Shown here: in pieces, positions 7,290 to 51,776 of the stretch
Layout: every line of letters starts with the position of its first letter
Position numbering within the stretch: position 1 is the stretch's first letter
Source of the DNA: a virus
Lineage: Duplodnaviria > Caudoviricetes
DNA: 64,000 nucleotides
IMG/VR virus record: IMGVR_UViG_3300026085_000093
Span: 1 to 64,000 of that record
Reading direction: 5' to 3' (one strand)
Made by a program: the position numbers and the translations under genes
Notes under the pieces: model-generated
Databases searched by the model: none
Told to the model about the DNA's origin: nothing
What the model saw: only the letters and a program-made list of their open reading frames with translations

Positions 7290-7648
7290 TGACTAATCCA
7301 TTTGCAGATATTGAACGCTTTGGCTCAGCGTGTGATCAAGAGCCTAATGAAGCAAACTACAAAATGTATCTTTCACTGATTGACGAAGAAGTTGGTGAAC
7401 TAGTAGAAGCAGTAGTAGCAGATGATCGTGTAGAACAACTAGACGCACTTATTGATATACTTGTTGTAACAATGGGTGCTATTCGTGCAGGTGGCTTTGA
7501 CGGCGAAGGTGCATGGAAAGAAGTTATGGATACAAACTTTGCTAAGATAGATCCGAATACCGGCAAAGTTCGTAAACGTGAAGATGGCAAGGTTCTAAAG
7601 CCAGAAGGATGGAAGGCTCCAGAACTTGCACAGTTTATAGGAGACTAA
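7289..7648 (+). CDS. All-alpha NTP pyrophosphohydrolase (MazG/dUTPase-like)
   Basis: EExxEL...LDALxD motifs and C-terminal KREDGKVLKPEGW. Confidence 0.75.
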   Translation: MTNPFADIERFGSACDQEPNEANYKMYLSLIDEEVGELVEAVVADDRVEQLDALIDILVVTMGAIRAGGFDGEGAWKEVMDTNFAKIDPNTGKVRKREDGKVLKPEGWKAPELAQFIGD

Positions 7649-35442: not shown

Positions 35443-38142
35443 ATGAGTTATGTAGATGCATTCTTTGACCGTGATCAAGATATCATTCGTGTTGTAGAAC
35501 GCAAAGATGGAAAGCGACATTTCCACGAATATCAAGCAAAATATACATTTTATTATGAAGATCCTAGAGGCAAATATAAAAGTGTCTATGGCGATCCTCT
35601 TACACGTATTGTGTGTAAAAACACAAAAGACTTTAGAAAAGAAGTTGCTATTAACAAAGGCAAGAACTTGTTCGAAAGCGACATTAATCCTATCTTTCAA
35701 TGTTTAAGTGAAAATTATCTTAATCAAGATGCACCCAAACTAAACATTGCGTTTTGGGATATTGAGACGGACTTTGATCCAGAGCGTGGCTTTGCTCCAG
35801 TTGAAGATCCGTTTATGCCAATTACTGCTATTACTGTATGTTTACAATGGCTAAACAGTGCGCTAATTACACTTGCTGTTCCACCTAAAGGTATGAAGCA
35901 TGAAGATGCTGTTGCTATGTGTAAAGAACGTTGGGGAGACGAAGTAATACTTTTCACTAATGATAAGAACGGCGATGGTGAAAGACAAATGTTACAGACG
36001 TTCTTAGACTTAATTGAAGATGCAGATGTACAAAGTGGTTGGAACTCAGAAGGTTATGATGTTCCGTATACTGTTAATAGAATTAAACGTGTACTCAGCA
36101 ACGATGATACAAGACGTTTTTGTTTATGGGGACAGTTGCCCAAGAAGCGTGAATATGAAAAATTTGGTAAAACGTCAGAAACATATGACTTTGTAGGTCG
36201 TGTGCATTTAGACAGTTTGGAACTATATCGAAAATACACATATGAAGAACGTCATACATATAGACTAGATGCGATTGGTGAAATTGAAGTAGGCGAAAAC
36301 AAAACTGTTTATGAAGGCACACTTGATCAATTGTATAATCAAGACTTTGAAACATTTATTGAATATAACAGACAAGACGTTGCACTACTTGACAAACTAG
36401 ATAAGAAATTACGTTTTATTGATTTAAGCAATTCAATTGCACATGAAAATACAGTGCTTCTACAAACAACAATGGGTGCTGTTGCTGTAACAGAGCAAGG
36501 TATTATCAACGAAGCACACAACAGAGACTTACGTGTACCAAATCGGCCAAAGCGTGATGACACAGAAAGCACACAAGCCGCTGGTGCTTATGTTGCGTTT
36601 CCTAAAAAAGGTGTACACAAATGGATCGGTTCAATGGACTTGAACTCACTGTATCCAAGTGTGATTCGTGCGTTGAATATGGCTCCAGAAACTATCATAG
36701 GACAAATACGTCCTGAAATTTCTGAAGCTCGTGTTACTGAAGATATGGGGTTAAAGAAAAAGTCGTTCGCAGGTAGTTGGGAAGGACGTTTCAGCACAGA
36801 AGAATACGAAGCAGTTATGGAACAACGCAAAGATGTTGCACTAACTGTTGACTGGGAAGATGGTCGTTCAGATGTATTAAGTGCTGCCGAAATACATAAA
36901 CTTGTTTTTGATTCAAACATGCCTTGGATGCTTAGTTCAAATGGCACTATTTTTACTACAGAATTTGAAGGCGTTATTCCAGGTATCCTAAAGCGTTGGT
37001 ATGCAGAGCGTAAAGACATGCAAAAGATGCTTAAGAAAGCAAAAGACGCTAAAAATGATGCGGAAATTGAATACTGGGATAAAAGGCAACTTGTTAAAAA
37101 AATTAACTTGAACAGTTTGTATGGTGCTATTTTGAATCCAGGTTGTAGATTTTTTGATAAGCGTATCGGTCAATCAACTACACTCACAGGTCGTACTATT
37201 GTTAAGCACATGAGTGCAGAAGTAAACAAAGTTATCACAGGCAAATACGATCACGTAGGAGAAAGTGTTATCTATGGTGACACAGACTCTGTGTACTTTA
37301 GTGCATATCCGACATTACGTAAAGAAATCGAAGCAGGTAATATTCCTTGGAGTAAAGACAATGTAATTACATTATATGATCAAGTAGCAGAAGCAGCAAA
37401 TGCTACGTTCCAAGAATTTATGCTAAAGGCATTTCATTGTCCAAAGAGTCGTTCAGATGTTATTGCCGCAGGTAGAGAAATTGTTGCAGAAAGCGGATTG
37501 TATATTACAAAGAAGCGTTATGCGGCACTAGTGTATGATGTAGAAGGTTTCCGTTCAGATGTAGATGGCAAACCAGGTAAAGTAAAAGCAATGGGCTTGG
37601 ACTTGCGTAGATCAGATACTCCAGTGTTTATGCAAGAGTTCTTAAGTGAAATTCTTCTTATGGTGCTACAAGACAAACCAGAAAAAGAAATCCTAGATCG
37701 TATTACTACGTTCAGAAAAGAATTTTCACAACGTCCAGGTTGGGAAAAAGGCACACCAAAACGTGCAAACAAGATTGGACACTATCAGCGTCTTGAAGAA
37801 CGCCAAGGCAAGGCCAATATGCCAGGGCACGTTAGAGCAAGCATCAATTGGAATACGCTAAAACGCATGAACGGCGACAAGTATTCGCAAGAGATTGTAG
37901 ATGGCATGAAAGTTATTGTTTGTAAATTAAAGCAAAATCCATTAGGGTTTACTTCAGTAGCATATCCTACAGATGAACTACGTATTCCAGAATGGTTTAA
38001 GGAACTACCATTTGATGATGCAGCAATGGCAGAAACTATTATTGACAACAAACTAGATAACTTGATCGGTGTGTTGAACTATCCACTAGAAGATACAAAA
38101 CAGCACACTACATTTAACAGTTTGTTTGAATTTGGAGTATAG
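35443..38142 (+). CDS. Family B DNA polymerase (gp43-like)
   Basis: Exonuclease DIET, DLNSLYPS, KINLNSLYG and YGDTDS motifs. Confidence 0.97.
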   Translation: MSYVDAFFDRDQDIIRVVERKDGKRHFHEYQAKYTFYYEDPRGKYKSVYGDPLTRIVCKNTKDFRKEVAINKGKNLFESDINPIFQCLSENYLNQDAPKLNIAFWDIETDFDPERGFAPVEDPFMPITAITVCLQWLNSALITLAVPPKGMKHEDAVAMCKERWGDEVILFTNDKNGDGERQMLQTFLDLIEDADVQSGWNSEGYDVPYTVNRIKRVLSNDDTRRFCLWGQLPKKREYEKFGKTSETYDFVGRVHLDSLELYRKYTYEERHTYRLDAIGEIEVGENKTVYEGTLDQLYNQDFETFIEYNRQDVALLDKLDKKLRFIDLSNSIAHENTVLLQTTMGAVAVTEQGIINEAHNRDLRVPNRPKRDDTESTQAAGAYVAFPKKGVHKWIGSMDLNSLYPSVIRALNMAPETIIGQIRPEISEARVTEDMGLKKKSFAGSWEGRFSTEEYEAVMEQRKDVALTVDWEDGRSDVLSAAEIHKLVFDSNMPWMLSSNGTIFTTEFEGVIPGILKRWYAERKDMQKMLKKAKDAKNDAEIEYWDKRQLVKKINLNSLYGAILNPGCRFFDKRIGQSTTLTGRTIVKHMSAEVNKVITGKYDHVGESVIYGDTDSVYFSAYPTLRKEIEAGNIPWSKDNVITLYDQVAEAANATFQEFMLKAFHCPKSRSDVIAAGREIVAESGLYITKKRYAALVYDVEGFRSDVDGKPGKVKAMGLDLRRSDTPVFMQEFLSEILLMVLQDKPEKEILDRITTFRKEFSQRPGWEKGTPKRANKIGHYQRLEERQGKANMPGHVRASINWNTLKRMNGDKYSQEIVDGMKVIVCKLKQNPLGFTSVAYPTDELRIPEWFKELPFDDAAMAETIIDNKLDNLIGVLNYPLEDTKQHTTFNSLFEFGV

Positions 38143-38143
38143 C

Positions 38144-38422
38144 ATGAAAAGTCCTATAAATGAACTACAACAACTAATGATTATCACCAGTGAAGAATGT
38201 GGCGAATTAATCCAAGTTTGTAGCAAAATTACGAGAAAGTATAAAAACGCTGGACAAGTTAATAAAGAATGGCGGCAGAAATTATTAGAAGAACTTGGCG
38301 ATGTACAGTGTATGATTGAACTTATGATTGATCATGGAATTGTTAATCATGTTGAAATTGCTAAACGCTCTAATGTAAAGCGTGAAAAATTAAAAAAGTG
38401 GAGTACTATAATCAATGAGTGA
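38144..38422 (+). CDS. MazG-like NTP pyrophosphohydrolase
   Basis: EECGELIQ...EELGDV. Confidence 0.75.
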   Translation: MKSPINELQQLMIITSEECGELIQVCSKITRKYKNAGQVNKEWRQKLLEELGDVQCMIELMIDHGIVNHVEIAKRSNVKREKLKKWSTIINE

Positions 38423-38666: not shown

Positions 38667-38919
38667 AAGACTTTTTATAGCATTTAGTATTTTCATAAAT
38701 GTTATACTTGGAGGCAGGATTAATCAAACATTTAGTGCAAGGAACTGGCAAAGAAAACGTGACAATAAAATAAATCTAGTGTATATTATTAATACAATAT
38801 TTAGGAATAATGATCACTGTTGGGAAAGTTGGGTAAAATGGACAATAATAAATGGTGCAATAAAAAGGTATGATGAAGAAATGGGTTTTGATAGAAAGAG
38901 GAGGCATTGGTACGAATGA
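38650..38919 (+). CDS. Hypothetical protein
   Basis: N-terminal hydrophobic segment; QTFSAR...DHC. Confidence 0.55.
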   Translation: MKKYLRRLFIAFSIFINVILGGRINQTFSARNWQRKRDNKINLVYIINTIFRNNDHCWESWVKWTIINGAIKRYDEEMGFDRKRRHWYE

Positions 38920-39341
38920 AAGTAGGATTTACCGCATCGACCTTCGATTTACTTCACGCCGGGCATATACAAATGCTACGTGAAGCAAAAGAACAGTGTG
39001 ACTATCTTATATGCGGATTACAAATGGATCCCAGTGTAGATAGGCCAGAAAAGAATCCACCTGTACAAACAATAGTGGAACGTTATACACAACTCAAAGG
39101 AGTTAGTTATGTAAATGAAATAATTCCTTATGCAACTGAACAAGACTTAGAAGATATCTTGACAATGTATCATATTGATGTTAGAATACTAGGTGAAGAG
39201 TATCGTGAAAAGGATTTTACTGGCAAGGATATTTGCAAGAAGCGGGGTATCCAGCTACATTTCAATAAAAGAGATCACCGCTTCTCAAGCAGCGATTTAA
39301 GAAAACGAGTATGCGAAAGGGAAAGAAATGCCACTACCTGA
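38916..39341 (+). CDS. Cytidylyltransferase (TagD/RfaE-like)
   Basis: STFDLLHAGH HxGH motif and C-terminal FSSS. Confidence 0.85.
   Translation: MKVGFTASTFDLLHAGHIQMLREAKEQCDYLICGLQMDPSVDRPEKNPPVQTIVERYTQLKGVSYVNEIIPYATEQDLEDILTMYHIDVRILGEEYREKDFTGKDICKKRGIQLHFNKRDHRFSSSDLRKRVCERERNATT
39159..39187 (+). promoter_or_regulatory. Sigma70 promoter inside the cytidylyltransferase gene
   Basis: TTGACA-N17-TAGAAT. Confidence 0.5.
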
Positions 39342-39647: not shown

Positions 39648-39783
39648 TTCACTTGTAGATATTAATGAATACAAAGTTACAAGATTTAATGATTATCCTA
39701 CAGAAAAACAATGCAGCATTAATGCAGCAGTTCTTGAAGCATTGTTTACAGAAGGAGAAAAGGCGGTATGCATAAATGAATAA
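39622..39783 (+). CDS. 53-aa hypothetical protein (not in the track)
   Basis: MMWTLLII...C...C; GAGGA RBS. Confidence 0.5.
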   Translation: MMWTLLIISSLVDINEYKVTRFNDYPTEKQCSINAAVLEALFTEGEKAVCINE

Positions 39784-40492
39784 GTTTATTTTTGATGTCG
39801 ACGGAACACTAACTCCAAGTAGACAAACTATCGATCCTGAGTTCAACAAATTCTTTTTTGATTTTGTAACAACTAATGATGTATATTTGATTACAGGCAG
39901 TGACAAAGATAAAACAGTTGAACAAATTGGTAATGTTTTGTTTTGTACAGCAAAAGTTGTTTATAATTGTTCTGGAAACGATGTTTGGAGTCACGGTGTT
40001 AATGTAAAAACCAATGACTGGACGGCACCAAAAGAACTTATGGATCTAATGCATGGTTGGCTACAAGCAAGTAATTTTCCTTTACGCACAGGTAACCACA
40101 TCGAAGTGCGTCCAGGTTGTGTTAACTTTAGTATAGTTGGACGTAACTGCACACTAGGCGAACGTAAATTATATATTAAACACGATCTCGAAAGTAGAGA
40201 ACGTGAAAGTATTGCTTATCAAATTAACACAGAATTTGAAAACATAACAGCAAAAGTAGGAGGAGAAACAGGTATTGATATCTATCCTACAGGTTGTGAC
40301 AAATCACAAATTATTAATGATTTTAACGACCATGACAAACTAATCTTTTTTGGCGATAGACAAGAACCTGGTGGTAATGACGAACCATTATCAACTGCGA
40401 TTGCCAAGAGAGGCAATGGTAAATCCTATCATGTCAAAGACTGGAAGGATACAATGGAGATCTTAAATGAAAGTTATGTTAACAGGCCATAG
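39776..40492 (+). CDS. HAD-IIB phosphomannomutase-like enzyme
   Basis: FDVDGTLT, NFSIVGRN and FFGD...GGND motifs of the eukaryote-type PMM family. Confidence 0.8.
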   Translation: MNKFIFDVDGTLTPSRQTIDPEFNKFFFDFVTTNDVYLITGSDKDKTVEQIGNVLFCTAKVVYNCSGNDVWSHGVNVKTNDWTAPKELMDLMHGWLQASNFPLRTGNHIEVRPGCVNFSIVGRNCTLGERKLYIKHDLESRERESIAYQINTEFENITAKVGGETGIDIYPTGCDKSQIINDFNDHDKLIFFGDRQEPGGNDEPLSTAIAKRGNGKSYHVKDWKDTMEILNESYVNRP

Positions 40493-41243
40493 AGGCTTTA
40501 TTGGGAGTCATTTACTAAAAAGACTTACAAAAAAACATAGTGTTGTAGGGTTTGATCTTAAGGACGGTTGGGATAGAGACAAACTTAACAACAGCCAAGA
40601 TCTAACAACTTGTGACCTAAAAGAAGAATTTGATTTAATTATACACCTAGCAGGAAAAAGTGGTGTTCGTGAATCAATGAAGGATCCTGCAGGTTATTGG
40701 CTTCATAATGTAGAAGTCACCAAAAGACTTTTAGAACGCTATCCAGACACACGTATGTTGATTGCAAGTTCAAGTTCAGCATATGAGCCACATCTAAATC
40801 CATATGCAGCAAGCAAGTATATCGTAGAAGAAGCAGCATCATGTTATTCCAATACGCTATGTATGAGATTCCATACAGTTTATTCTGATAATCCTCGAAA
40901 AGGTATGTTTATGCAAAAGTATCTAGATGGAGAACTTGAATATGTTACAAACCATTACAGAGATTTTATACATATTGAAGATTTATGCGATGCAATAGAA
41001 TTATGTATGAATAGCAAGTATAAAGGAGAAATTGATATAGGTACAGGACATCCTTTTCGTATCCGTGACTTTGTAGAAGATTTGCCCATCCGTCTAAATA
41101 CCCCAAACGAAAGACAATGGACTTGTGCAAATACGGAAAAAATTAAAACACTAGGCTTTAAACCTAAATACTCAGTAGAAAAACTATTGACAAACAGCAG
41201 ATTAGGCAATATAATAGAATTTAACAATGGAGAAACAGTATGA
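40467..41243 (+). CDS. NAD-dependent epimerase/dehydratase
   Basis: TGHRGFIG, HLAG and YAASK. Confidence 0.88.
   Translation: MKVMLTGHRGFIGSHLLKRLTKKHSVVGFDLKDGWDRDKLNNSQDLTTCDLKEEFDLIIHLAGKSGVRESMKDPAGYWLHNVEVTKRLLERYPDTRMLIASSSSAYEPHLNPYAASKYIVEEAASCYSNTLCMRFHTVYSDNPRKGMFMQKYLDGELEYVTNHYRDFIHIEDLCDAIELCMNSKYKGEIDIGTGHPFRIRDFVEDLPIRLNTPNERQWTCANTEKIKTLGFKPKYSVEKLLTNSRLGNIIEFNNGETV
41187..41215 (+). promoter_or_regulatory. Perfect sigma70 promoter for the clamp/dpdA-like genes
   Basis: TTGACA-N17-TATAAT. Confidence 0.75.
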
Positions 41244-41968
41244 AAGATATCTTACAAGATGTTGTGTCGCACACACATAGTCTCGGTTTTATTACAACAT
41301 TAAAAGTTGTTGCAGAACAAGAGACTAGTATCGAAAGTATGGCAGAAGATAGAAGTGTTGTACTTAGTGCAACAACTCATTCGCCTGTGTCGGAATTTGT
41401 AGGTACATTTGGTATGCCAGATTTAAATAAACTTGCATATCATTTGAAGAACCCAGAATACCAGGACAAAGCAAAAATTGATGTGGTACAGGAAGAACGC
41501 AACGGAGAAATTATTCCAACACATATTCATTTTGAAAATGAAGTTGGCGACTTCCAAAACGACTATCGCTTTATGAATAAAGCAATTATCGAAGAAAAAT
41601 TAAAAAGTGTTAAATTCAAAGGTAGCACATGGGATGTAGAATTTACTCCAAGTGTTGCAGCAATTGCACGTATGAAACTAATGGCTGGTGCTCATTCAGA
41701 AGAACCAGTATTCCAGGTCAAAACAGAAGATGGAAATCTAAACTTTTACTTCGGTGACTTGAATACACACGCAGGTAAGTTTACATTCCAACACGATGTA
41801 GGTGGAACCTTGCAACACACTTGGGCATGGCCAGTTGCGCAAACTATTTCTATTTTAGGACTAGATGGCGATAAGAAAATTAGCATCACAGATCAAGGTG
41901 CTATGATGATTACAGTAGACAGTGGTATGGCCAAGTATGACTATATCCTGCCAGCACAAAGTAAATAA
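41240..41968 (+). CDS. Probable DNA polymerase sliding clamp (gp45/PCNA-like)
   Basis: 242 aa, two-domain beta/alpha pattern ending YDYILPA; PolB and RFC are in the window. Confidence 0.6.
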   Translation: MKDILQDVVSHTHSLGFITTLKVVAEQETSIESMAEDRSVVLSATTHSPVSEFVGTFGMPDLNKLAYHLKNPEYQDKAKIDVVQEERNGEIIPTHIHFENEVGDFQNDYRFMNKAIIEEKLKSVKFKGSTWDVEFTPSVAAIARMKLMAGAHSEEPVFQVKTEDGNLNFYFGDLNTHAGKFTFQHDVGGTLQHTWAWPVAQTISILGLDGDKKISITDQGAMMITVDSGMAKYDYILPAQSK

Positions 41969-43425
41969 TGAATACAAATTTAACTGCAACACAAAATGAC
42001 TATGCTGTTTTTCTGCCTGCGTTGAGTGGCTTTTATGCTACTTACGTGGGCAAACAGCGTTTTGAAAACTATGTTGATCCTGCTAGAATACCAAGCAATT
42101 TAAATAATGGCGTTGAAAGTCTTAACTATCTAAATAAAGATCAAGGACAGTTTCAATATAAGTGGACATTGTACTCAGCAGGACATGCTGACTTAGATAC
42201 TACAAAACATGCACCTAAGGAAGATATGGTGCGTAACAGAGATAGAGCAAACACTTGGCTACTTGGTGACTCAGGTGGCTTCCAGATTGGTAAGGGTGTT
42301 TGGGAAGGTGACTGGAAAGATCCAAACTGTCCAAAAGCACAAAAGAAACGTGATGGTGTATTGCGTTGGATGGATGCTTATATGGATTATGGTATGATAC
42401 TTGATATTCCCGCCTGGGTTGCACGTTCACCTGCAGGTGCAAAAGCAACAGGCATTAGTACATATGCAGAAGCAGTTAAAGCAACACGTATTAATAATGA
42501 TTATTGGATGAAGCATCGTACAGGTGCCTGTAAGTTTTTGAACGTACTACAAGGCGAAAATCATGCAGATGCAGATGACTGGTACGATCAAATGAAAGAC
42601 TACTGTGATCCAAAAAAATATGAAGATCATTTTAACGGATGGTCAATGGGTGGACAAAATATGTGCGATGTACACCTTGCTCTTAAACGTGTTGTTTCAC
42701 TACGTTTTGACGGATTGCTTGAAAAGGGCAAACATGATTTTATGCACTTCTTAGGAACTTCAAAACTTGAGTGGGCTACACTACTAACAGACATTCAACG
42801 AGCAGTGCGCAAATATCATAACGAAAACTTTACTATCACATTTGATTGTGCTAGTCCTTTCCTTGCAACTGCTAATGGACAAATCTACTGTGAACTGGAA
42901 ACAGAAGACAGAAGTAAATGGGTATATCGAATGGTGCCAAGCATTGACGATAAAGCACTAGCAAACGATACTACTCCGTTTAGTCAAGCATTTGTAAGAG
43001 AAGGAAAACACCCTAGTTTCTTAGATTCACCAATAACAACAGGATTACAAGCCAAAGATATTTGTATCTATGGTCCGGGTGATCTAAATAAAATAGGCAA
43101 AGAAGGCAAGACCTCATGGGACAGTTTTTCATATGCTGTTATGATGGGTCATAATGTATGGATGCACATTAACGCAGTGCAGGAAGCAAACCGCCAATAT
43201 GATGCAGGTATTATTCCTAATATGTTAATACAAGAAAAGTTTGATAGAATTGCGTTTAGAGATATTGTTGATGCAATTTTTGAAACCGATAACAGACAAA
43301 AAGCCGAATCTCTCATTTTAGAATTTTCTAAATATTGGGACAGTATTATAGGTACTAGAGGCAATACAGGAAAGCGTATTGTAAATGCACAAACGCAATT
43401 CAACAATCTATTTGAGGAACTATAA
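41968..43425 (+). CDS. dpdA: tRNA-guanine transglycosylase-like protein (DpdA-like DNA 7-deazaguanine transglycosylase)
   Basis: TGT motifs DSGGFQ, LDIP, VLQG, GG, HFLG and FDC; located next to folE/queE. Confidence 0.75.
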   Translation: MNTNLTATQNDYAVFLPALSGFYATYVGKQRFENYVDPARIPSNLNNGVESLNYLNKDQGQFQYKWTLYSAGHADLDTTKHAPKEDMVRNRDRANTWLLGDSGGFQIGKGVWEGDWKDPNCPKAQKKRDGVLRWMDAYMDYGMILDIPAWVARSPAGAKATGISTYAEAVKATRINNDYWMKHRTGACKFLNVLQGENHADADDWYDQMKDYCDPKKYEDHFNGWSMGGQNMCDVHLALKRVVSLRFDGLLEKGKHDFMHFLGTSKLEWATLLTDIQRAVRKYHNENFTITFDCASPFLATANGQIYCELETEDRSKWVYRMVPSIDDKALANDTTPFSQAFVREGKHPSFLDSPITTGLQAKDICIYGPGDLNKIGKEGKTSWDSFSYAVMMGHNVWMHINAVQEANRQYDAGIIPNMLIQEKFDRIAFRDIVDAIFETDNRQKAESLILEFSKYWDSIIGTRGNTGKRIVNAQTQFNNLFEEL

Positions 43426-43607
43426 TGATGGGACATAAAGAACATTTAGTTGAACTGAAAAGAAAACATAGAAAACTAGATGAAGAAATTATTGAACTTG
43501 AAAAATCGTATGTTGTAGATGACGAAATTAGAAAATTAAAAACAAAAAAACTTTGGTATAAAGATGAAATTCATAGACTGGAGAATATAATTGCGTTCAG
43601 AGAATGA
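43425..43607 (+). CDS. DUF465/YdcH-like coiled-coil protein
   Basis: LKRKHRKLDEEI...LKTKKLWYKDEI. Confidence 0.65.
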   Translation: MMGHKEHLVELKRKHRKLDEEIIELEKSYVVDDEIRKLKTKKLWYKDEIHRLENIIAFRE

Positions 43608-43767
43608 AATTAGATTAGAAGCATTACAAATGGCCCTAGAAGAAATTGAAAAAATCATTGACAGTATGCATAAAAACAATTATACTAATGAAGAAATTAA
43701 TGAATACAACAAAAAACGTTGGGACATTTGGAACGAAATGTATAAGGTAAAAAATGGCAAAGGTTGA
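43591..43767 (+). CDS. 58-aa hypothetical protein (not in the track)
   Basis: TTG start after GGAG; helical. Confidence 0.45.
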   Translation: MRSENEIRLEALQMALEEIEKIIDSMHKNNYTNEEINEYNKKRWDIWNEMYKVKNGKG

Positions 43768-44068
43768 AGAAACAGTAGCAGCCCTAAAGGGTATACCTAC
43801 AAAAGATGAATTAGTTGCATTGTTAGAAAAGCAAGTCGTTGAAGTAACTTTTAATAAATTAGACGGCACTGAAAGAGTAATGCCTTGTACTCTTATGCCT
43901 TCATTCTTTCCAGATCCAAAGAAAGATACAACACAAAAACACGAAAAAAATGTTGTTGTGTGGGCAATTGAATCAAACGCTTTTAGAAGTTTTAGGTACG
44001 ATCGTGTTAAAAAAGTAGAAGTTATTCAATATGGCAACGGCGGCAACGAATGGGAGGCTCAATATTAA
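43754..44068 (+). CDS. Sm-like/WYL_2 (DUF2693-like) protein
   Basis: VTFNKLDGTERVMPCTL...FRSFRYD. Confidence 0.65.
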   Translation: MAKVEETVAALKGIPTKDELVALLEKQVVEVTFNKLDGTERVMPCTLMPSFFPDPKKDTTQKHEKNVVVWAIESNAFRSFRYDRVKKVEVIQYGNGGNEWEAQY

Positions 44069-44622
44069 TGAATAGAGATTATTCTACAGGTTCTGCAGAT
44101 GATGCTATTTACTTTATCGGTAACGAAGTAGAACGCACACCTGCATTTGGCTTAAAAACTTTGTTTATTACAGGCAAACAGCCTTTAGAAGAAATTAAAG
44201 GCATTGCTAATGTGAATAAAATCAAGCATTTGTTTTTTGGTTCTAATCATAGTTTTAAACCCGAGACTAGTGAAGATTGGGACTGGTGGGAATCGATGAT
44301 CAAGGATTGTCTAGATGAAGGTTACTATTGCAGTTTAGATATTCCTATTGCACTTGCAGAAGAATTTCTCGAAAGTGGTTTGACAGAATACGAAAATTTT
44401 ATTCCACAACTAAGAGTTCCTATTCCATATATTAAACTATGGAATTATAACACTATGTTAAAAATCGATGATAAAGATTTTAAGGCAACTAATCCAGGTG
44501 TTTGGTGTCATAGTTTACACGACTTAATGGATAGGAAAAAATTTACTGACTGGTCTAATTATGCATCAGATGAAATTATTGAGTTGACAACTATCGAAAA
44601 TGGTACTATAGTAAATGAGTAA
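44068..44622 (+). CDS. Uncharacterised protein inside the deazaguanine locus
   Basis: 184 aa, directly upstream of the T-fold gene. Confidence 0.65.
   Translation: MNRDYSTGSADDAIYFIGNEVERTPAFGLKTLFITGKQPLEEIKGIANVNKIKHLFFGSNHSFKPETSEDWDWWESMIKDCLDEGYYCSLDIPIALAEEFLESGLTEYENFIPQLRVPIPYIKLWNYNTMLKIDDKDFKATNPGVWCHSLHDLMDRKKFTDWSNYASDEIIELTTIENGTIVNE
44584..44612 (+). promoter_or_regulatory. Sigma70-type promoter
   Basis: TTGACA-N17-TATAGT; if real, the T-fold gene starts at a downstream ATG (44654 or 44666). Confidence 0.5.
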
Positions 44623-45076
44623 CAACAAAGAACCCGAGCGCTATTATGATTGGATGCTTTGGAAAATGCGACAGGAAGATAATAAATTGGCAAATAGTTT
44701 AGAAAATGCAAAACGTAGTATTTGGGTAACATTCCGTAAAGAAGGTATCCATTTGTATCCTGCGGCAAAAGACGACCCGGCACTTGCAACAGGTGGTTGG
44801 GATGATGTAAGTTTCTTAGGTGTAGCACATAGACACATCTTTCATTTCAAAGTACAAATTCAAGTAACACACAATGATAGAGATATTGAATTTATTCAGT
44901 TCAAGCGTTGGCTCGAAAGTCTTTATGATGATAAGGTTATTGAACTTAATCACAAGTCTTGCGAAATGATCGCAGACGACTTGTATATCCAGATTAACAA
45001 CAAATATCCCGGCCGCTTTGTTGTTATTGATGTCGCCGAAGATGGCGAAAATGGCTGTCAAATTGTTTACCCATAG
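44615..45076 (+). CDS. QueD-paralog T-fold enzyme, DpdL-like (putative CDG decarboxylase)
   Basis: LGVAHRHIF fits LxxxHRHxF; also IEF..FK, SCE and EDGENG. Confidence 0.7.
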   Translation: MSNNKEPERYYDWMLWKMRQEDNKLANSLENAKRSIWVTFRKEGIHLYPAAKDDPALATGGWDDVSFLGVAHRHIFHFKVQIQVTHNDRDIEFIQFKRWLESLYDDKVIELNHKSCEMIADDLYIQINNKYPGRFVVIDVAEDGENGCQIVYP

Positions 45077-45094
45077 AAAAAAGGATTAAGGTAA

Positions 45095-45307
45095 ATGACT
45101 ATTACATTCAATCGTGACGCTTACAATAAAGTGTTTAATGATTTGGATAAATTCCGCGACTACTGTCGTTTCGAAGGAAAGGTCTTTAACGAGGCTGATT
45201 TATATAAAAAGGATTCGCCTATTTGGCAGTCTTATATTAAACATCAAAATTATATTCGTGCTAAGTCACGTAACGCAAGCCGAAGTTTTAACAATCGGAG
45301 AAACTAA
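45095..45307 (+). CDS. Small hypothetical protein
   Basis: AAGG RBS; 70 aa. Confidence 0.55.
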   Translation: MTITFNRDAYNKVFNDLDKFRDYCRFEGKVFNEADLYKKDSPIWQSYIKHQNYIRAKSRNASRSFNNRRN

Positions 45308-46356
45308 TGACAATTTACATTGTAGATATCGAAGCAGTTGATACACGCTACACAAAGCAATGGAAAGACTATCTTCCGAAGCAACTACAACGATCTACAA
45401 ACGAAAATGTAAAAGTCATTAGTGGTGGGGAAACGCCTCAGGCAACAACGCCTGGGGCATTTCTCAATTTTGGTGGAACTAATGTTTATAAGTCCAAACA
45501 ACTAGAAATTATAGGCGAAATGTTTTGCAAAGGGCAAATTCAAAGTGGAGATTATTTTTTATATACCGATGCTTGGAACCCTACTGTTATTCAGTTACGT
45601 TATATGGCAGAACTCTTGGACGTTGATGTTAGCATCGGCGGGCTTTGGCATGCTGGTAGTTATGACCCTCATGACTTTCTTGGCAGGTTAATTGGAGATA
45701 AACCGTGGGTACGTCATGCAGAACAGGCAATGTATGAATGTTACGATGATAACTTTTTTGCAAGTAATTTTCATATTGAATTATTTGCACAAAGTTTAGA
45801 CATTGATCCAGATAAAACACATCGTGTAGGCTGGCCTATGGAATATTTACGTAGTAGTTTAGATCAATACAAAGGTATGGAGAAGCGTAATCTTATTCTT
45901 TTCCCACATCGTCTTGCCCCAGAAAAACAAGTTGATGTATTCCATGATTTGAAACAGCAACTTCCGCAATATGAATTTGTTGTATGTCAAGAGCAAATGC
46001 TTTCTAAAAATGAATATCACAACTTGTTAGGAGAAGCAAAACTTGTGTTTAGTGCTAACTTACAAGAAACACTTGGTATTAGTTGGTACGAAGGCGCACT
46101 TGTTGATGCTATTCCTATGGTTCCTGATCGCCTTTCTTACAGTGAAATGGCATTGCCTGAATTTAAATATCCTAGCCAATGGACTGAAGATTATAGTGCA
46201 TATAGAAAACATAGAGGAGATATTGCTGCCAAGATTGTTGACTATATGGAAAACTACAATGACTATCTTATAAGTTTAGAAAAACAGCGTATTAGACTTA
46301 ACAAAGAATTTTTTGACGGAACAGAACTATACAGGAATATTGCAGATGGGCAATGA
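45307..46356 (+). CDS. GT-B fold glycosyltransferase (GT4-like)
   Basis: PHRLAPEKQ and the ETLGISWYE EX7E motif. Confidence 0.8.
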   Translation: MTIYIVDIEAVDTRYTKQWKDYLPKQLQRSTNENVKVISGGETPQATTPGAFLNFGGTNVYKSKQLEIIGEMFCKGQIQSGDYFLYTDAWNPTVIQLRYMAELLDVDVSIGGLWHAGSYDPHDFLGRLIGDKPWVRHAEQAMYECYDDNFFASNFHIELFAQSLDIDPDKTHRVGWPMEYLRSSLDQYKGMEKRNLILFPHRLAPEKQVDVFHDLKQQLPQYEFVVCQEQMLSKNEYHNLLGEAKLVFSANLQETLGISWYEGALVDAIPMVPDRLSYSEMALPEFKYPSQWTEDYSAYRKHRGDIAAKIVDYMENYNDYLISLEKQRIRLNKEFFDGTELYRNIADGQ

Positions 46357-46666
46357 TGATGATTATATTTTTAGTGTAAGTACAGACCACACTTATTCAG
46401 TTAGCATAAGTGATATCACAACAACAACTATAGACACTAGTACATTTGATGATCTAATTACATTAGATGGAGATAACGGTATTACACTTATCATGGACGA
46501 TCCTGTTGATTTTGTAGATCAAATGCCTTCATTAGATAAAATAAAAGATATGTGTCAACATTATCCTGGCTTAAAAAAAGCTTTTAAAAACTTTGAATCA
46601 GTTTACAAAATGGTTCATCAAGACTATAAAGGTAATCACGAACCAAAAATAGAGGTACCATTTTAA
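46346..46666 (+). CDS. Hypothetical protein
   Basis: Acidic Thr-rich N-terminus and CQHYPGL module. Confidence 0.5.
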   Translation: MGNDDDYIFSVSTDHTYSVSISDITTTTIDTSTFDDLITLDGDNGITLIMDDPVDFVDQMPSLDKIKDMCQHYPGLKKAFKNFESVYKMVHQDYKGNHEPKIEVPF

Positions 46667-46893
46667 TGCAACATCCAATTGAAGAATGGATCAGACGTAT
46701 CAATGCAATGAAAGATTTATGCATACAAGCACATAGAGTGCGTAACGAATTTGCAGAAATCAGTTATAAACAATATGACGAATCTACTTGTAAGCACTTA
46801 CTAGAACAAGTTCAATCAATGGCAGCAGGTATTGCAAACGAAAAAATAACTGATATAAAAACTGAAATGGATGAGTGGAAAAAGAATGATTAA
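46666..46893 (+). CDS. Hypothetical protein
   Basis: TAATG-coupled ORF. Confidence 0.5.
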   Translation: MQHPIEEWIRRINAMKDLCIQAHRVRNEFAEISYKQYDESTCKHLLEQVQSMAAGIANEKITDIKTEMDEWKKND

Positions 46894-47467
46894 GAAACAT
46901 TATTATTCGTGGCAAGACGTAGAAAAGATGTGTGCAAGTATTGTCATGCAGATGTATAAAGATAATTGGCGTCCTGATTACATTGTAGGTATTACACGAG
47001 GTGGTAACATTCCTGCTACTATTATTAGTAACATGACAGGCATCCGTTGTGAAGCACTTAAAGTAAGTTTGCGTGATAACGGTAATGGCGAAAGCGAAAG
47101 CAACTGTTGGATGGCAGAAGATGCATTTGGATATGAAGATATGAAACTTCAAACCCATAACCAAGACATTCAAGCAAGTGCAAATGTTGATATTATCACT
47201 ATAGAAAACAAAAGTAATATCCTTATTGTAGACGATATTAACGACACTGGTGCAACATTTAACTGGATTGTTAATGACTGGCAAGCCAGTTGTTTACCTG
47301 ATCATGATCGATGGAGCAGAGTTTGGGACGAAAACGTTCGTTTCGCAACATTAACTGAAAACTTATCAAGTGCCTGCGGATTAGTGCGTTATTATGCACA
47401 CGAAATTAATAAAGCAGAAGAAAACGTTTGGTTAGTTTATCCTTGGGAGAATGTAAATGAGTACTGA
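46886..47467 (+). CDS. Type I phosphoribosyltransferase (Gpt/Hpt-like)
   Basis: VGITRGG, PRPP loop LIVDDINDTGAT and C-terminal WLVYPWE. Confidence 0.88.
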   Translation: MIKKHYYSWQDVEKMCASIVMQMYKDNWRPDYIVGITRGGNIPATIISNMTGIRCEALKVSLRDNGNGESESNCWMAEDAFGYEDMKLQTHNQDIQASANVDIITIENKSNILIVDDINDTGATFNWIVNDWQASCLPDHDRWSRVWDENVRFATLTENLSSACGLVRYYAHEINKAEENVWLVYPWENVNEY

Positions 47468-47708
47468 ATATAAAGAATATAGATGCAAGTATAAAGCAGA
47501 ATGGCCTGTAGACAAATTTGGCAGACTTGGTGGAATGTATAGCATGGCAGATCTTCCAGTTAAGGCATATGTCGAACTAGAAAGAGAAGGTCTTTTAGTA
47601 TCACAAGATAGCAAAAAAGAACTGTACGAAATTAAAGATGCTGAAAAACAATTTATCAAACGTGTAGTTCCTTTTAGTGATGTAACAGATATTGAAGAAA
47701 TATCTTGA
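47457..47708 (+). CDS. Hypothetical protein
   Basis: 83-aa ORF. Confidence 0.5.
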   Translation: MSTEYKEYRCKYKAEWPVDKFGRLGGMYSMADLPVKAYVELEREGLLVSQDSKKELYEIKDAEKQFIKRVVPFSDVTDIEEIS

Positions 47709-47733
47709 CAAAAACCTAAATACATGGTATATT
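47705..47733 (+). promoter_or_regulatory. Sigma70 promoter of folE with an overlapping TAAATA
   Basis: TTGACA-N17-TATATT. Confidence 0.7.
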
Positions 47734-47772
47734 AAATTAATAGACATCCCCGTCTATAACTCGGAGAAATAA

Positions 47773-48456
47773 ATGAGCAAATCAAAACAAATTACAGCCC
47801 GCTTGCAAGATGCAGGCATTCGCTATTGGGCCGGCGACAACATTTCAGAAGTCCTACAAGCAGGCGACAAAGAAGAACTTATTGAAGATGCTACAGTAGC
47901 ATTTGAAGGTGTACTAGATGCACTACTAATCGATCGACATAACGATCCTAATTCACAAGGTACTGCAAGGCGTCTTGCTAAGATGTACTTTAATGAAATT
48001 ATGGCAGGACGATATGATCCTATTCCAAGTGCTACAGCATTTCCAAACCATGTAGATGAAGGTTACAAAGGTATGTTAGTTGTAAGAAGCGAACTTAAAA
48101 GTATGTGTTCGCATCATCATCAACCAGTAAACGGTGTAGCATATATTGGTATTATTGCCGCTGATACACTTATCGGACTTTCAAAGTATACACGTATTGC
48201 ACAATGGTGTGCTAGACGTGGTACACTACAAGAAGAACTTAATAATGTTATTGCAAATGAAATACAGAAAGCAACAGGAAGTCCTAACGTAGGTGTGTAC
48301 ATTCAAGCAACACATGGTTGTTGTGAAAATAGAGGTATTGGTGCACACAGCAGTCTTACACAAACAACTGTACTACGTGGTGCATTCTATGATGATCCTA
48401 GTACTAAGAAAGAGTTTATGGATAATATAAAACTACAACAGGAATTTGCTTGCTAA
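47773..48456 (+). CDS. folE: GTP cyclohydrolase I
   Basis: SMCSHHHQP, GLSKY.RI, LQEEL and HGCCENRG. Confidence 0.95.
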   Translation: MSKSKQITARLQDAGIRYWAGDNISEVLQAGDKEELIEDATVAFEGVLDALLIDRHNDPNSQGTARRLAKMYFNEIMAGRYDPIPSATAFPNHVDEGYKGMLVVRSELKSMCSHHHQPVNGVAYIGIIAADTLIGLSKYTRIAQWCARRGTLQEELNNVIANEIQKATGSPNVGVYIQATHGCCENRGIGAHSSLTQTTVLRGAFYDDPSTKKEFMDNIKLQQEFAC

Positions 48457-48562
48457 TGTTTGAAATTAATTATTCTTTTACACAACCTTACTACAATACA
48501 TTCATTGTTAATCTGCAACCTAAATACGATCTAGCAGAAAGATTTATCAAGGCAAAAGCAGA

Positions 48563-49201
48563 ATGTCAAGGTTAATTGCATTTGGTTGTAGTTTGACATA
48601 CGGCGATAATTTAAAAGATATATGGCCGCACAATGAAGAGTCGAGCAAACTTGCTTGGCCTTCTGTTGTTTCTAAACTATTAAATTTAGAATGCATTAAC
48701 AAAGGAGTAAGTGGTTATTCAAATAAAGAAATACTTAACGATTTGTTGACATTTGAATACCAAAAAGGTGACACAGTTATTTGTTTATGGACATTTCATC
48801 AGAGACATGCAATACTTACTGAAGAATTATCAACACCTGCAATTTCAATTAAACCGTGGGAAATGAAAAACAATAAAGCAATTAAGTCATATTTTAAAAA
48901 TCTTTACACAGATTATGATTCTAATTGGACAACTAACTTATACATGAGAGTAGCGAAATCTTACTTTGACGAGCATAACATAATTAATTACCATGCTAAT
49001 GCAAAACCATGGATCTTCCAACAGGAAAAATGGAATAACATAAATTTTATTCCAGTAGAAGACATTGATACAATTCGAAACAAAGAAAGCAGTGATTTGG
49101 CAAAAGACAAACGTCATCCAGGTTACAGAGTGCATAAAGAGTTTGGTACAAATATTGCAAATTATATAAAGGAACAGACACATGAAATTACGTTACAGTG
49201 A
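48563..49201 (+). CDS. SGNH/GDSL-like protein
   Basis: FGCSLTYG, NKGVSGYSN and DKRHPG. Confidence 0.55.
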   Translation: MSRLIAFGCSLTYGDNLKDIWPHNEESSKLAWPSVVSKLLNLECINKGVSGYSNKEILNDLLTFEYQKGDTVICLWTFHQRHAILTEELSTPAISIKPWEMKNNKAIKSYFKNLYTDYDSNWTTNLYMRVAKSYFDEHNIINYHANAKPWIFQQEKWNNINFIPVEDIDTIRNKESSDLAKDKRHPGYRVHKEFGTNIANYIKEQTHEITLQ

Positions 49202-50075
49202 AGCATTTTATAGTGTACAAGGTGAGGGTAAATACGTAGGAGTACCTAGCGTATTTTTACGTACATTTGGTTGCAACTTTCGTTGTATGAATTTTGGATT
49301 ACCTAAGGACAAAGATCGTTGGGAGCAACACGCAGAAGGCAATCGGTACAATCCAGAAGTAAAGGCACTACTTGACGCAGGCGTACACGAAACTACAGAA
49401 AAATTTGAAGATTTACCTATTATTCACACAGGCTGTGATACATATGCTAGTATCTATCCAGAGTTTAAACACTTTAACAAACTTGCAGAAGTAGACGAAG
49501 TTGTAGATCATTTGATTAGTTTATTGCCAGAAGGCAAATGGACACAAGACAATGGACAAGATATTCATTTGATTATGACAGGTGGTGAACCATTACTTGC
49601 ATGGCAACGACTTTACGTAGAGTTGTTTGAACATCCGAAAATGAAAGATTTAAAAAATGTCACGTTTGAAACAAACACTACACAATTTTTACATGATGAT
49701 TTGTTCGATTACATCAACAATAATGACAGAATTGAATGGACATTTAGTTGTTCTCCTAAACTTTCCGTCAGCGGAGAAACTTGGGAGTCAGCTATCAAAC
49801 CTGATGTCCTGCGGGATTACGCTCGTTGTGACAGCAGTTCTGTTTATCTTAAATTTGTTGTTGCTGATATGGATGATGTTGATGAAGTTAGTAGAGCAGT
49901 TAGTGAATATCGTGCAGCGGGTGTGGAATGCCCTGTCTATCTTATGCCGCTTGGCGGTCGCTCGGAAGGGTACAACATCACGGTACAAGAGGTGGCGAAG
50001 CTCTGTATGGAACGAGGCTGGAGGTTCACTCCGAGACTCCACATTAGCCTATTCGGAAATGCCTGGGGAACATAA
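49182..50075 (+). CDS. queE: 7-carboxy-7-deazaguanine synthase (radical SAM)
   Basis: FYSVQGEG, FLRTFGCNFRC...CDT, TGGEP, CSPK and PRLH. Confidence 0.9.
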   Translation: MKLRYSEAFYSVQGEGKYVGVPSVFLRTFGCNFRCMNFGLPKDKDRWEQHAEGNRYNPEVKALLDAGVHETTEKFEDLPIIHTGCDTYASIYPEFKHFNKLAEVDEVVDHLISLLPEGKWTQDNGQDIHLIMTGGEPLLAWQRLYVELFEHPKMKDLKNVTFETNTTQFLHDDLFDYINNNDRIEWTFSCSPKLSVSGETWESAIKPDVLRDYARCDSSSVYLKFVVADMDDVDEVSRAVSEYRAAGVECPVYLMPLGGRSEGYNITVQEVAKLCMERGWRFTPRLHISLFGNAWGT

Positions 50076-50144: not shown

Positions 50145-50534
50145 ATGGGATGGTGGAATAAACTTGTTAGAGACAAAAAAGCCGAAGAAGAAAAGGCAAA
50201 GTTTGAGGAAGAAAAACTTGAGTTTCTAAAAAAGAAAGATCCAAAAGAATATGCAACAAAAAGAAAACAGCCATGGGTAAGTGTTTTAGATGTACAAGTA
50301 AACGAAGAAAATATTCGCAACGGATTCTTTGAACTAGATTGGAATGAATATTTTATTCAACAACTTTTAGAAGCAGGTTATGGAACAGATGCTGATCCTG
50401 AAGAAGAAATTGTTGATAGATGGTTTAAAGATATTGTTTACAATATGCTTGTAGATGAAGGTTTAGACACAGATAGAGGTGCAGGTTATATTAATGTTGT
50501 ACCTATAGATAAAAGAAGAAGTGAAGTATCATAA
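50145..50534 (+). CDS. Hypothetical protein
   Basis: NGFFELDWNEYF core. Confidence 0.6.
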   Translation: MGWWNKLVRDKKAEEEKAKFEEEKLEFLKKKDPKEYATKRKQPWVSVLDVQVNEENIRNGFFELDWNEYFIQQLLEAGYGTDADPEEEIVDRWFKDIVYNMLVDEGLDTDRGAGYINVVPIDKRRSEVS

Positions 50535-50540
50535 TAGTGC

Positions 50541-51776
50541 ATGACGAATGAAATAGAAGATTTATACAAAAATTTTTGTGTCCATCCTTTTGTTAAAATG
50601 TTTGTGACAACAACAGGGCATATGAAAGCCTGTTGTTATGCAAAACAATTAGATTCAGACGATATTAATATTCTAGGCAAGGATGTCGATGAAGTATGGA
50701 ACAGCAAGACTTTACAAAAATTAAGACACAAATTCAATCAAAGAATCATCCCTAAAAATATCTGTAAAAGTTGTATTGAAAGTGAAGAACAGGGAATCAT
50801 TTCAAACCGACAGTATGAAAATCATAAATGGAAATCATTAGCCGATTATTATTATAAAAATGCCCATACAGTTGTTCCTAGTCCTCTGAGTTTTGATTTG
50901 AGAATGAGCAACGAATGTAACTTGCAGTGCGTGATGTGCCTCCCTACATTGAGCAATCAAATTGCAAAGAACATGCTAGAATATAATAAATTCGGCAAAA
51001 GCAATCCTTATACCAATAGTAAAGACCTAGAAGTTCTTTCTACATCATCTAATAATTTCAACCAGCGATTTGTTGACCATATACTTGAAAATGCAAAAAG
51101 AACTCAAGAGATTGTGGCAGTCGGCGGCGAGCCGTTTGTGATGAAGGGATTTACATCTTTGATAGAAGAATTAGTGAATAGAAAAGAAAGCGGTCATATA
51201 AAGGTACACATAATTTCAAATGGCACAATTATCAAAGAATCATGGATAGAAAAATACCTTACAAAGTTTAAGCATGTAAACTTATCAATAAGTTTGGATG
51301 CTACTGGAAAAGTTTTAGAATATGTTCGATACCCTAGTTCTTGGTCTGCATTGGAAAGCAAGATTTTAAGATCTAAAAAAATATGCGACCAATATGAGAA
51401 TTTTCAAATTACCTTAGAGCCTACAATACAATTGCTAAATCTAAAAGATTTGCCAAATTTGCTTGACTTTATTAAACAAAATAAGTTTCCTTTTAATACA
51501 ACATTTTTAGATTGGCCAGAGCCATTACATTTTGCCAACTCACCCATTGATTACAGAATTGAAATTGTAAAAAAAATTGAAACTTTCTTACCAGAGTTAA
51601 AAACTTTAGACCTAATAGACGACTACAACTGGTTAGATTGGATTAAAACGGAGCCACAAAAAACTTTATCAGATAAACAACGTGATTATTTTAGATACAT
51701 GTTGGATTATTTTGACAGTACAAGAGCAACAAAATTCTTAGATCTTTATCCTGAATTTGGTTTTTTAAAAGATTGA
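50541..51776 (+). CDS. Radical SAM protein with an N-terminal twitch-like segment
   Basis: ACC...CKSC, CNLQCVMC and GGEP. Confidence 0.82.
   Translation: MTNEIEDLYKNFCVHPFVKMFVTTTGHMKACCYAKQLDSDDINILGKDVDEVWNSKTLQKLRHKFNQRIIPKNICKSCIESEEQGIISNRQYENHKWKSLADYYYKNAHTVVPSPLSFDLRMSNECNLQCVMCLPTLSNQIAKNMLEYNKFGKSNPYTNSKDLEVLSTSSNNFNQRFVDHILENAKRTQEIVAVGGEPFVMKGFTSLIEELVNRKESGHIKVHIISNGTIIKESWIEKYLTKFKHVNLSISLDATGKVLEYVRYPSSWSALESKILRSKKICDQYENFQITLEPTIQLLNLKDLPNLLDFIKQNKFPFNTTFLDWPEPLHFANSPIDYRIEIVKKIETFLPELKTLDLIDDYNWLDWIKTEPQKTLSDKQRDYFRYMLDYFDSTRATKFLDLYPEFGFLKD

Follow-up and report, generated by a model that had tools for sequence, protein, structure and literature searches.

The first 64,000 nucleotides (64 kb; here called the window) of the viral record IMGVR_UViG_3300026085_000093 (Duplodnaviria; Caudoviricetes) hold a gene cluster that, as read from its sequence, is likely to provide 7-deazaguanine modification of the phage's DNA. 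The IMG/VR record is 236,366 bp long, with a CheckV completeness of 66%. The window has a G+C content of ~36% and carries nearly every gene on the + strand; a near-identity DNA search against GenBank phages returned zero matches. Conservation was counted over 80 related loci, with denominators that vary by element. An invariable block runs through these loci (~50–77 loci), comprising a sliding clamp gene, a gene resembling tRNA-guanine transglycosylase (TGT), u184, dpdL, s70, a glycosyltransferase gene of the GT4 type, a phosphoribosyltransferase (PRTase) gene, folE and queE. Variable in the same loci are the sugar genes, the WYL_2 gene and the genes for a 212-aa protein and a twitch radical S-adenosylmethionine (SAM) enzyme (Table 1).

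The TGT-like protein carries all three motifs that an earlier note, made from the letters of this DNA, had read in it (D101-S-G-G-F-Q106, L145-D-I-P148 and F292-D-C294). Across 56 diverse homologues (26–87% identity), D101, S102, G104, D146, P148, G224, H260, G263 and D293 are invariant, and among these we take the counterparts of D102, D156, G230 and D280 of the Z. mobilis TGT to lie. In an AlphaFold2 (AF2) model with a pLDDT of 92.6, residues 1–462 form a TGT barrel and a helical part, and residues 463–485 form a disordered tail. The model superposes on bacterial, archaeal and human TGTs with VIA Z scores of 19.4, 18.9 and 18.7 over ~300 aligned residues (308 at Z 19.4), and the top 50 Foldseek matches in the PDB are all TGTs (E 1e-7). 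The bacterial enzymes (Z. mobilis 1PUD and T. maritima 2ASH) share with it the (beta/alpha)8 barrel, the general base in DSGGFQ, the Asp of LD.P, the Gly of the GLAVG region and the nucleophilic Asp of xDC/S. They differ from it in sequence (~14% identity), and the phage protein has lost the zinc site, has ~100 extra residues and a C-terminal clamp-type tail, and is predicted to act on DNA. Among named entries in BFVD, the closest structures are TGT-like proteins of phages, one of them R9TGF0 of Vibrio phage nt-1 (E 7e-11), which may be the DpdA2 named for nt-1 (PMC10516641).

This relationship was detected only by fold and profile–profile methods. The protein has zero matches in Pfam (including TGT, PF01702), NCBIfam or PHROG, none of the 56 homologues matches Pfam, and neither the single sequence nor the 56-member profile retrieved a TGT chain from the PDB sequences. 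The family profile aligned by hhalign with the DpdA proteins of Acidovorax phage ACP17, Xanthomonas phage BUDD and Burkholderia phage BCSR5 (98.1%, E 9e-14, ~21% identity), placing its catalytic motifs in register with DSGGLQ, FDEIP and SYDS of the ACP17-type enzymes, and an hmmsearch between the two families gave 4e-8. The zinc cluster CxCxxC...H is absent from the 56-homologue alignment, with partial conservation only of C366 (38/56) and H395 (49/56). Both the missing zinc cluster and a place in a divergent DpdA subfamily had been proposed in the earlier note, and both proposals agree with this zinc-less, DpdA-like family. The comparison of hidden Markov models (HMMs) that it had suggested gave matches to ACP17-type DpdA and to DpdL. 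Membership of DpdA3 was rejected: BLAST of the 485-aa protein against the 259-aa DpdA3 of Cellulophaga phage phiST (CGPG_00065) gave no match, and the fold match of this DpdA3 in BFVD reaches only E 4e-3. The TGT-like protein is therefore best described as a likely divergent DpdA-type enzyme, for which guanine exchange in DNA is predicted. Its family is very large, with 985 clusters at 50% identity and more than 7500 at 90%; the IMG/VR contigs that carry it number at least 598 and come from marine, estuarine and freshwater samples. The phage itself is present in marine, estuarine and freshwater metagenomes dated 2014–2025.

The T-fold gene encodes FLGVAHRHIF, confirming the LGVAHRHIF motif of the earlier note, and in an alignment this stretch (F-L69-GVA-H73-R-H75-I-F77) falls on the motif that holds the Cys in the QueD proteins of ACP17 and phiST. 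In the published definition, the DpdL signature LxxxHRHxF replaces CxxxHGH of QueD, and the catalytic Cys is lost (PMC10516641). Identity to known DpdL proteins is 56% for PA5oct, 51–53% for ACP17 and 37% for phiST, with tblastn E-values of 3e-33 (ACP17) and 7e-11 (phiST). According to the earlier note, such proteins decarboxylate 7-carboxy-7-deazaguanine (CDG); the motif given there is correct, and the activity itself is only predicted. Its folE and queE assignments hold. FolE scores 129.4 bits with Pfam PF01227 (cut-off 27) and matches phrog_2197 (E 2e-43), and its score of 131 against the NCBIfam equivalog cut-off of 202 marks it as a divergent member. QueE matches the QueE-like phrog_2076 over its full length (E 7.5e-50), is 40% identical to QueE of Synechococcus phage BUCT-ZZ01, and keeps C31/C35/C85 and T133-GGEP in common with annotated phage QueEs; its matches to NCBIfam equivalogs are partial and below cut-off, and Pfam Radical_SAM gives no match.

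Nothing in the 236-kb record or in 10 related records reaches the cut-off of the QueC model (PF06508), and neither QueF (PF14489) nor a Pfam-type TGT was found in the 236-kb record, so that the lack of QueC and QueF, first noticed for the window, extends to the whole record. A 247-aa PP-loop ATPase ~20 kb downstream (70062–70802) scores 21.9 bits with Pfam QueC (cut-off 22); as a pathway QueC it was rejected, for the match covers the C-terminal part only and the gene belongs to a separate, radical-SAM-rich cluster. That region of the record (66–116 kb; for example 69158–71727, minus strand) holds at least 12 radical SAM/SPASM-twitch paralogues together with the PP-loop ATPase, and has the look of a large tailoring cluster. 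The published signature of the DpdL pathway consists of DpdA, FolE, QueE, QueD and DpdL without QueC (PMC10516641), and the present locus agrees with it when the QueD encoded in relatives is counted.

The setting of the TGT-like gene points to replication. The clamp gene's stop codon overlaps its start codon, and a clamp-like gene is found at the same offset in 77/77 related loci. Language-model features place the product in PCNA/gp45 clusters (score 0.94–0.98), and its homologue in Sinorhizobium phage Phosso is annotated as a sliding clamp. In the earlier note the locus lay beside a clamp and the family B DNA polymerase PolB; Pfam bears out the polymerase, and the clamp is recognized by these features and the Phosso annotation, with no HMM match. 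The DpdA-like protein ends in TQFNNLFEEL and PolB in TTFNSLFEFGV, and of the record's 345 open reading frames (ORFs) with 80 aa or more, only 3 have this motif at their end, the two included. The third is a radical SAM protein (32158–33279) with an xxLFE-type tail (EIDKLFELSEEM), which may be another clamp client or a chance match. In ACP17 the polymerase and DpdA tails read SLDDLFE and TLDELFE, in BUDD SLESLFG and SLEELFG, and in marine relatives of this phage NTFNSLFDFG and TQFNNLFEE. At the related locus L043, LF has switched to FF in both tails (IQSFFSF in the polymerase, AQEFFG in the DpdA-like protein). Mimicry of the cognate polymerase's tail thus recurs independently in three lineages. 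In T4-type replisomes the C-terminal peptide of the polymerase docks on the gp45 clamp, as seen in the structure of the RB69 clamp with a peptide. The simplest reading of the tails is that these DpdA enzymes are probably recruited to the clamp and work on freshly replicated DNA. The clamp-type tail and the synteny with clamp and PolB therefore favour DNA, rather than tRNA, as the substrate.

Further genes belong to the invariable block. The 349-aa protein, a probable glycosyltransferase of the GT4 type (here GT4), has no direct Pfam match, and its best PDB match is weak (the GT4 enzyme WlaC/PglA, E 0.55); language-model features place it with GT1/GT4. It is 39% and 44% identical to homologues that neighbour DpdL in ACP17 and PA5oct, and its profile matches proteins of BUDD (2.5e-44), BCSR5 (4e-38) and BUCT-ZZ01 (1e-25), of which those of BUDD and BCSR5 pass Pfam Glycos_transf_1 (PF00534; 45.7 and 42 bits against 26.4). 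The GT4 motif is defined by EX7E together with a phosphate-binding Arg/Lys in the C-terminal domain. All 16 homologues compared share E254-TLGISWY-E262, R202 and K207 without change. Seven lineages have GT4 in the company of DpdL and DpdA, among them the PA5oct-like phages, Phosso, ACP17, BUDD/X1, BCSR5 and BUCT-ZZ01.

The start codon of u184 is the ATG at 44068, not that at 44050, and no related locus of sufficient length lacks the gene. PA5oct has a homologue, as does ACP17, where it lies between the genes for FolE and DpdA, and an alignment of 18 sequences including ACP17 has 25 invariant residues. The AF2 model is an alpha/beta fold (pLDDT 80.8), whose likeness to a partial QueE-type barrel (Z ~6) is too weak to trust. 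The PRTase passes Pfam PF00156 (40.2 bits against 26.3), matches the N-terminal part of NCBIfam XPRT and carries the acidic loop motif ILIVDDINDTGAT that binds phosphoribosyl pyrophosphate (PRPP). It is present in 47/49 related loci, and homologues are encoded within the que operon of BUCT-ZZ01, beside QueE in PA5oct, and in phiST. The small ORF s70 holds the same position in 57/64 related loci and has no family match. We found no paper that links a glycosyltransferase or PRTase to DpdL.

Cultured phages offer several points of comparison. Pseudomonas phage PA5oct (Wroclawvirus; EST35_0314–0324) encodes a member of the same DpdA-like family (36% identity) in the order clamp, DpdA-like, GT4, DpdL, PRT-like, QueE and u129-like. 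It differs in having HFH instead of HRH in DpdL, an acidic DpdA-like tail (KLTELEQ), a u184 homologue ~28 kb away and no FolE in the 19-kb stretch around the cluster. PA5oct DNA is resistant to several restriction enzymes whose sites contain G (PMC12191111). The clusters of ACP17, BUDD, BCSR5 and BUCT-ZZ01 likewise combine DpdA, a glycosyltransferase, DpdL and QueE, with no QueC in the regions seen; ACP17 also shares u184, BUCT-ZZ01 shares the PRTase, and ACP17 and BUDD share the polymerase-like DpdA tail, whereas their DpdA proteins form a separate family, related at the profile level only, and the gene order is different. The freshwater cyanophage BUCT-ZZ01 (L098, 6144–13078) has the most compact complete module, QueE-PRT-x-QueD-FolE-x(447 aa)-DpdA-DpdL-GT4. 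Phage phiST (Hutinet et al., NAR 2023) shares the LxxxHRHxF motif of DpdL, FolE/QueD/QueE without QueC, a homologous PRTase elsewhere in its genome (none within the cluster), a MazG-like gene adjoining DpdL and a position beside replication genes. It differs, apart from its DpdA3, in that no homologue of GT4 (in the part of the cluster fetched and by tblastn of the phiST records) or of u184 (in the phiST records) was found.

Taken together, these features suggest that the locus is a QueC-independent module that puts a 7-deazaguanine base into phage DNA at the replication fork and elaborates it further, a reading we hold tentatively and at somewhat less than an even chance. Gene identities, fold, residues, synteny and tail mimicry are read from sequence and models; the enzymatic activities, the order of steps and the GT4 acceptor in the following scheme are our proposal. 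FolE would convert GTP to 7,8-dihydroneopterin triphosphate (H2NTP), a distally encoded QueD would convert this to 6-carboxytetrahydropterin (CPH4), and QueE would convert CPH4 to CDG. DpdL, as a QueD paralogue without the catalytic Cys, would remove the carboxyl group of CDG to give 7-deazaguanine. The zinc-less DpdA-like enzyme, bound to the clamp by its tail, would swap guanine in new duplex DNA for the deazapurine. The simplest role for the Gpt-like PRTase would be to return the released guanine to GMP and GTP, and so to FolE. GT4 and u184 would then elaborate the base further, most plausibly by addition of a sugar, to give a derivative of 2′-deoxy-7-deazaguanosine (dDG).

Several observations weigh against this interpretation. 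Neither the product of 41240–41968 nor its family profile matched anything in HMM libraries or the PDB as a clamp. Acidic tails of the KLEELE type, in place of the polymerase-like one, occur in ~9/46 tail variants of the marine group and in PA5oct. For u184, Foldseek and wide VIA searches of the PDB and a search of the AlphaFold Database clusters gave no informative relative (best Z 6.5). The acceptor of GT4 is unexplained, since dDG has no obvious hydroxyl for O-glycosylation, and GT4 could act on something unrelated to DNA. A hydroxymethylpyrimidine (hm-pyrimidine) acceptor was considered and is unlikely, because the record holds no ThyA-family gene. The decarboxylase role of DpdL is a prediction only, and expression of dpdL with dpdA of ACP17 or phiST in E. 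coli gave no dDG (PMC10516641).

The remaining adverse point is that no canonical QueD is encoded in the window or the 236-kb record. The earlier note had FolE, QueD and QueE making CDG; FolE and QueE are present, and with QueD outside both window and record that claim was overstated. The genome-wide search for queC and queD that it recommended found neither in the record, and located a canonical QueD gene 50–56 kb upstream in all relatives (3/3) with a contig that covers 50 kb or more ahead of the TGT-like gene. The record starts at the point equivalent to about 17.7 kb of the relative G004, downstream both of that relative's QueD gene and of its giant fibre-like genes. Contigs G000, G001, G005 and L005 (~98%-identical strain) all end 41–42 kb upstream of the TGT-like gene, and this shared break corresponds to the giant fibre-like genes at 8.4–17.7 kb in G004. 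Assembly probably broke off here at fibre genes that are hypervariable or repetitive, which hides QueD, and the position of the contig end is probably why QueD is missing from the record. The idea that QueD is truly absent and that DpdL acts as QueD is weakened by the QueD genes that relatives carry upstream of the record end.

The alternative that survives best is that plain dDG is the final product. DpdL would decarboxylate CDG, the DpdA-like enzyme would insert 7-deazaguanine, and GT4, u184 and the PRTase would be accessory or unrelated. We consider this unlikely as a whole, and it is nevertheless the strongest competitor. In phiST, which combines DpdL with FolE, QueD and QueE and lacks QueC, G is fully replaced by dDG (PMC10516641), and a homologous PRTase is encoded there as well. 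Phages of the phiST type are the only DpdL lineage with measured dDG (PMC10516641). Within the present group, however, GT4 and u184 are conserved as well as DpdL is, GT4 adjoins DpdA and DpdL or separates them in seven lineages and was not found in the phiST cluster part or by tblastn, and dpdA and dpdL of ACP17 do not yield dDG by themselves. Because GT4 and u184 are co-conserved with DpdL and DpdA across lineages and missing in phiST, and because the two-gene reconstitution failed, we consider a further, probably glycosyl, elaboration as likely as plain dDG. Of the earlier note's proposal that the phage carries dDG (or its 7-carboxy form, dCDG) in its DNA, modification is likely to stand, while plain dDG becomes the minimal prediction under the published model.

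A nucleotide-level, pre-replicative route is improbable, and has a precedent in antibiotic biosynthesis. In the QueC-less tubercidin pathway, TubE is a CDG:PRPP phosphoribosyltransferase whose product is then decarboxylated (PMC6112128). By analogy, the phage PRTase would couple CDG (or 7-deazaguanine) to PRPP and DpdL would decarboxylate the product; host or phage kinases and ribonucleotide reductase would supply 7-deaza-dGTP to PolB, a MazG-like enzyme would deplete dGTP, and the TGT-like enzyme would be left a secondary role in patching or editing. The PRTase is indeed a core gene here, and recurs in the BUCT-ZZ01 operon and in phiST with its 100% replacement; MazG-like genes lie at 38126–38422 and 7289–7648, and phiST has one beside DpdL. 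The tubercidin pathway (TubC/A/B, TubE and TubF) shares with this locus QueC-less use of CDG, a PRTase and a decarboxylation, and differs in that its decarboxylase is of the UbiD family instead of a T-fold protein, its product is a free nucleoside antibiotic, and it has no transglycosylase. By contrast, every locus of the present group retains an intact transglycosylase with a clamp-type tail, which a pre-replicative route does not need. The PRTase resembles guanine/xanthine salvage enzymes, which fits recycling of released guanine, and no dedicated kinase was identified, although no systematic kinase search was made.

DpdL might instead be a variant pterin lyase that acts before QueE, so that another 7-substituted deazaguanine, or dCDG, enters the DNA; such a product could bear a group that GT4 can glycosylate. 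We judge this a little less probable again. In its favour, DpdL is paralogous to QueD, pterins are bound by T-fold enzymes, the decarboxylase role is predicted only, and attempts at heterologous production of dDG were unsuccessful. A nucleophilic acceptor, which GT4 would require, is probably lacking in dDG, and no ThyA-type hydroxymethylase in the record would supply hm-pyrimidine as a substitute. However, a canonical QueD is encoded in addition to DpdL in phiST, ACP17, BUCT-ZZ01 and relatives of the present phage, and the DNA of phiST contains dDG, as decarboxylation predicts. Finally, that the module acts on RNA or the nucleotide pool (tRNA modification, or an inhibitor nucleoside) and leaves phage DNA unmodified is very improbable: the nearest solved structures are tRNA-guanine transglycosylases, but DNA is indicated by the C-terminus that resembles the clamp tail of the polymerase and by the place of the gene beside clamp and PolB, homology ties the protein to phage DpdA, the zinc subdomain of the tRNA enzymes is lost, and PA5oct DNA resists restriction (PMC12191111).

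The genes around this core are listed with it in Table 1. The MazG-like gene at 38126 abuts the PolB stop codon, and the second copy, at 7289, matches phrog_671; the first could clear dGTP. Three sugar-nucleotide genes between PolB and the clamp gene, which also match PHROGs 7878 and 540, are present in 25–40 of ~70 related loci and are a possible donor supply for the GT4 glycosyltransferase. The WYL_2 gene is found at the equivalent position in few relatives. A 129-aa protein after QueE (50145–50534) is shared by the group and PA5oct (there around EST35_0324), and matches a PHROG labelled as a virion structural protein, an odd place for one inside a metabolic cluster. Three further radical SAM paralogues lie in the window, at 32158–33279, 33158–34327 and 50541–51776. 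Promoter-like sites of the sigma-70 type precede the clamp gene (12/12) and the WYL_2, DpdL and FolE genes (11/12 each), the 11/12 matches on the + strand being at 43658, 44584, 47705 (with TG) and 51773. The total of such matches is not above that of shuffled sequences (67 against 58.7 ± 8.3); of the consensus promoters described in the earlier note, the very strong sites at the named genes stand, and the overall count gives no excess.

Table 1. Positions (in the record and window alike), strand (where stated) and basis of assignment for the genes of the locus, its neighbours and one predicted promoter.
Feature	Position	Strand	Basis or remark
Family B DNA polymerase PolB	35443–38142	+	Pfam DNA_pol_B, 127 bits, and DNA_pol_B_exo1; C-terminus TTFNSLFEFGV, presumed to bind the clamp
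MazG-like nucleoside triphosphate pyrophosphohydrolase	38126–38422	+	phrog_4856, E 3.8e-19; Pfam MazG 16.6 bits, sub-threshold
HldE-C-like nucleotidyltransferase	38907–39341	+	Pfam CTP_transf_like
PMM-type (eukaryotic-type) phosphomutase	39776–40492	+	Pfam PMM
Short NDP-sugar epimerase/dehydratase	40467–41243	+	Pfam Epimerase
Perfect sigma-70-type promoter match, TTGACA-17-TATAAT	41187–41215	+	12/12, ahead of the clamp/DpdA-like pair; predicted
gp45/PCNA-like sliding clamp	41240–41968	+	Language-model features; annotation of Phosso homologue
TGT-like (DpdA-like) protein, 485 aa	41968–43425	+	Fold, motifs, profile–profile comparison
WYL_2 (Sm-like SH3) domain protein	43754–44068		Between the DpdA-like gene and u184
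184-aa protein of unknown function, u184	44068–44622	+	Conservation across related loci
T-fold protein DpdL	44615–45076	+	phrog_17812, E 8.8e-35
Small ORF s70, 70 aa	45095–45307	+	Conservation between DpdL and the glycosyltransferase
GT-B/GT4-type glycosyltransferase, 349 aa	45307–46356	+	Homologue profiles; EX7E
Type I purine phosphoribosyltransferase (Gpt/XGPRT-like)	46871–47467	+	Pfam Pribosyltran
GTP cyclohydrolase I, FolE	47773–48456	+	Pfam GTP_cyclohydroI
212-aa protein of unknown function	48563–49201		Variable among relatives
QueE-like radical SAM enzyme	49182–50075	+	phrog_2076
Twitch radical SAM enzyme	50541–51776		Variable among relatives

That 7-deazaguanine modifications of DNA serve against restriction is already known, and the DpdL/dDG branch has been in print since 2023. 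What is new here is a large, unannotated DpdA-like family, the mimicry of polymerase tails and the conserved partners GT4, u184 and PRTase. With no Pfam, NCBIfam or PHROG model for the family, current pipelines, applied to environmental jumbo phages, would overlook guanine modification in one of their major groups. The tail mimicry offers a testable route by which a base exchanger thought of as post-replicative could reach high or complete replacement. That a catalytically intact GT4, u184 and the PRTase travel with DpdL in most lineages, and that GT4 is missing from phiST, would explain the failure of the two-gene reconstitution and hints at an end product of a new kind, and since PA5oct, ACP17 and BUCT-ZZ01 are available as cultured proxies the question is directly testable. 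It is possible, although we regard it as doubtful at present, that GT4-carrying DpdL clusters generally install a glycosylated or otherwise GT4-dependent 7-deazaguanine, written co-replicatively by a clamp-recruited DpdA-type enzyme. If so, this would be a class of purine hypermodification not yet described, spanning this abundant clade of marine jumbo phages, PA5oct, ACP17, BUDD, BCSR5, Phosso and BUCT-ZZ01.

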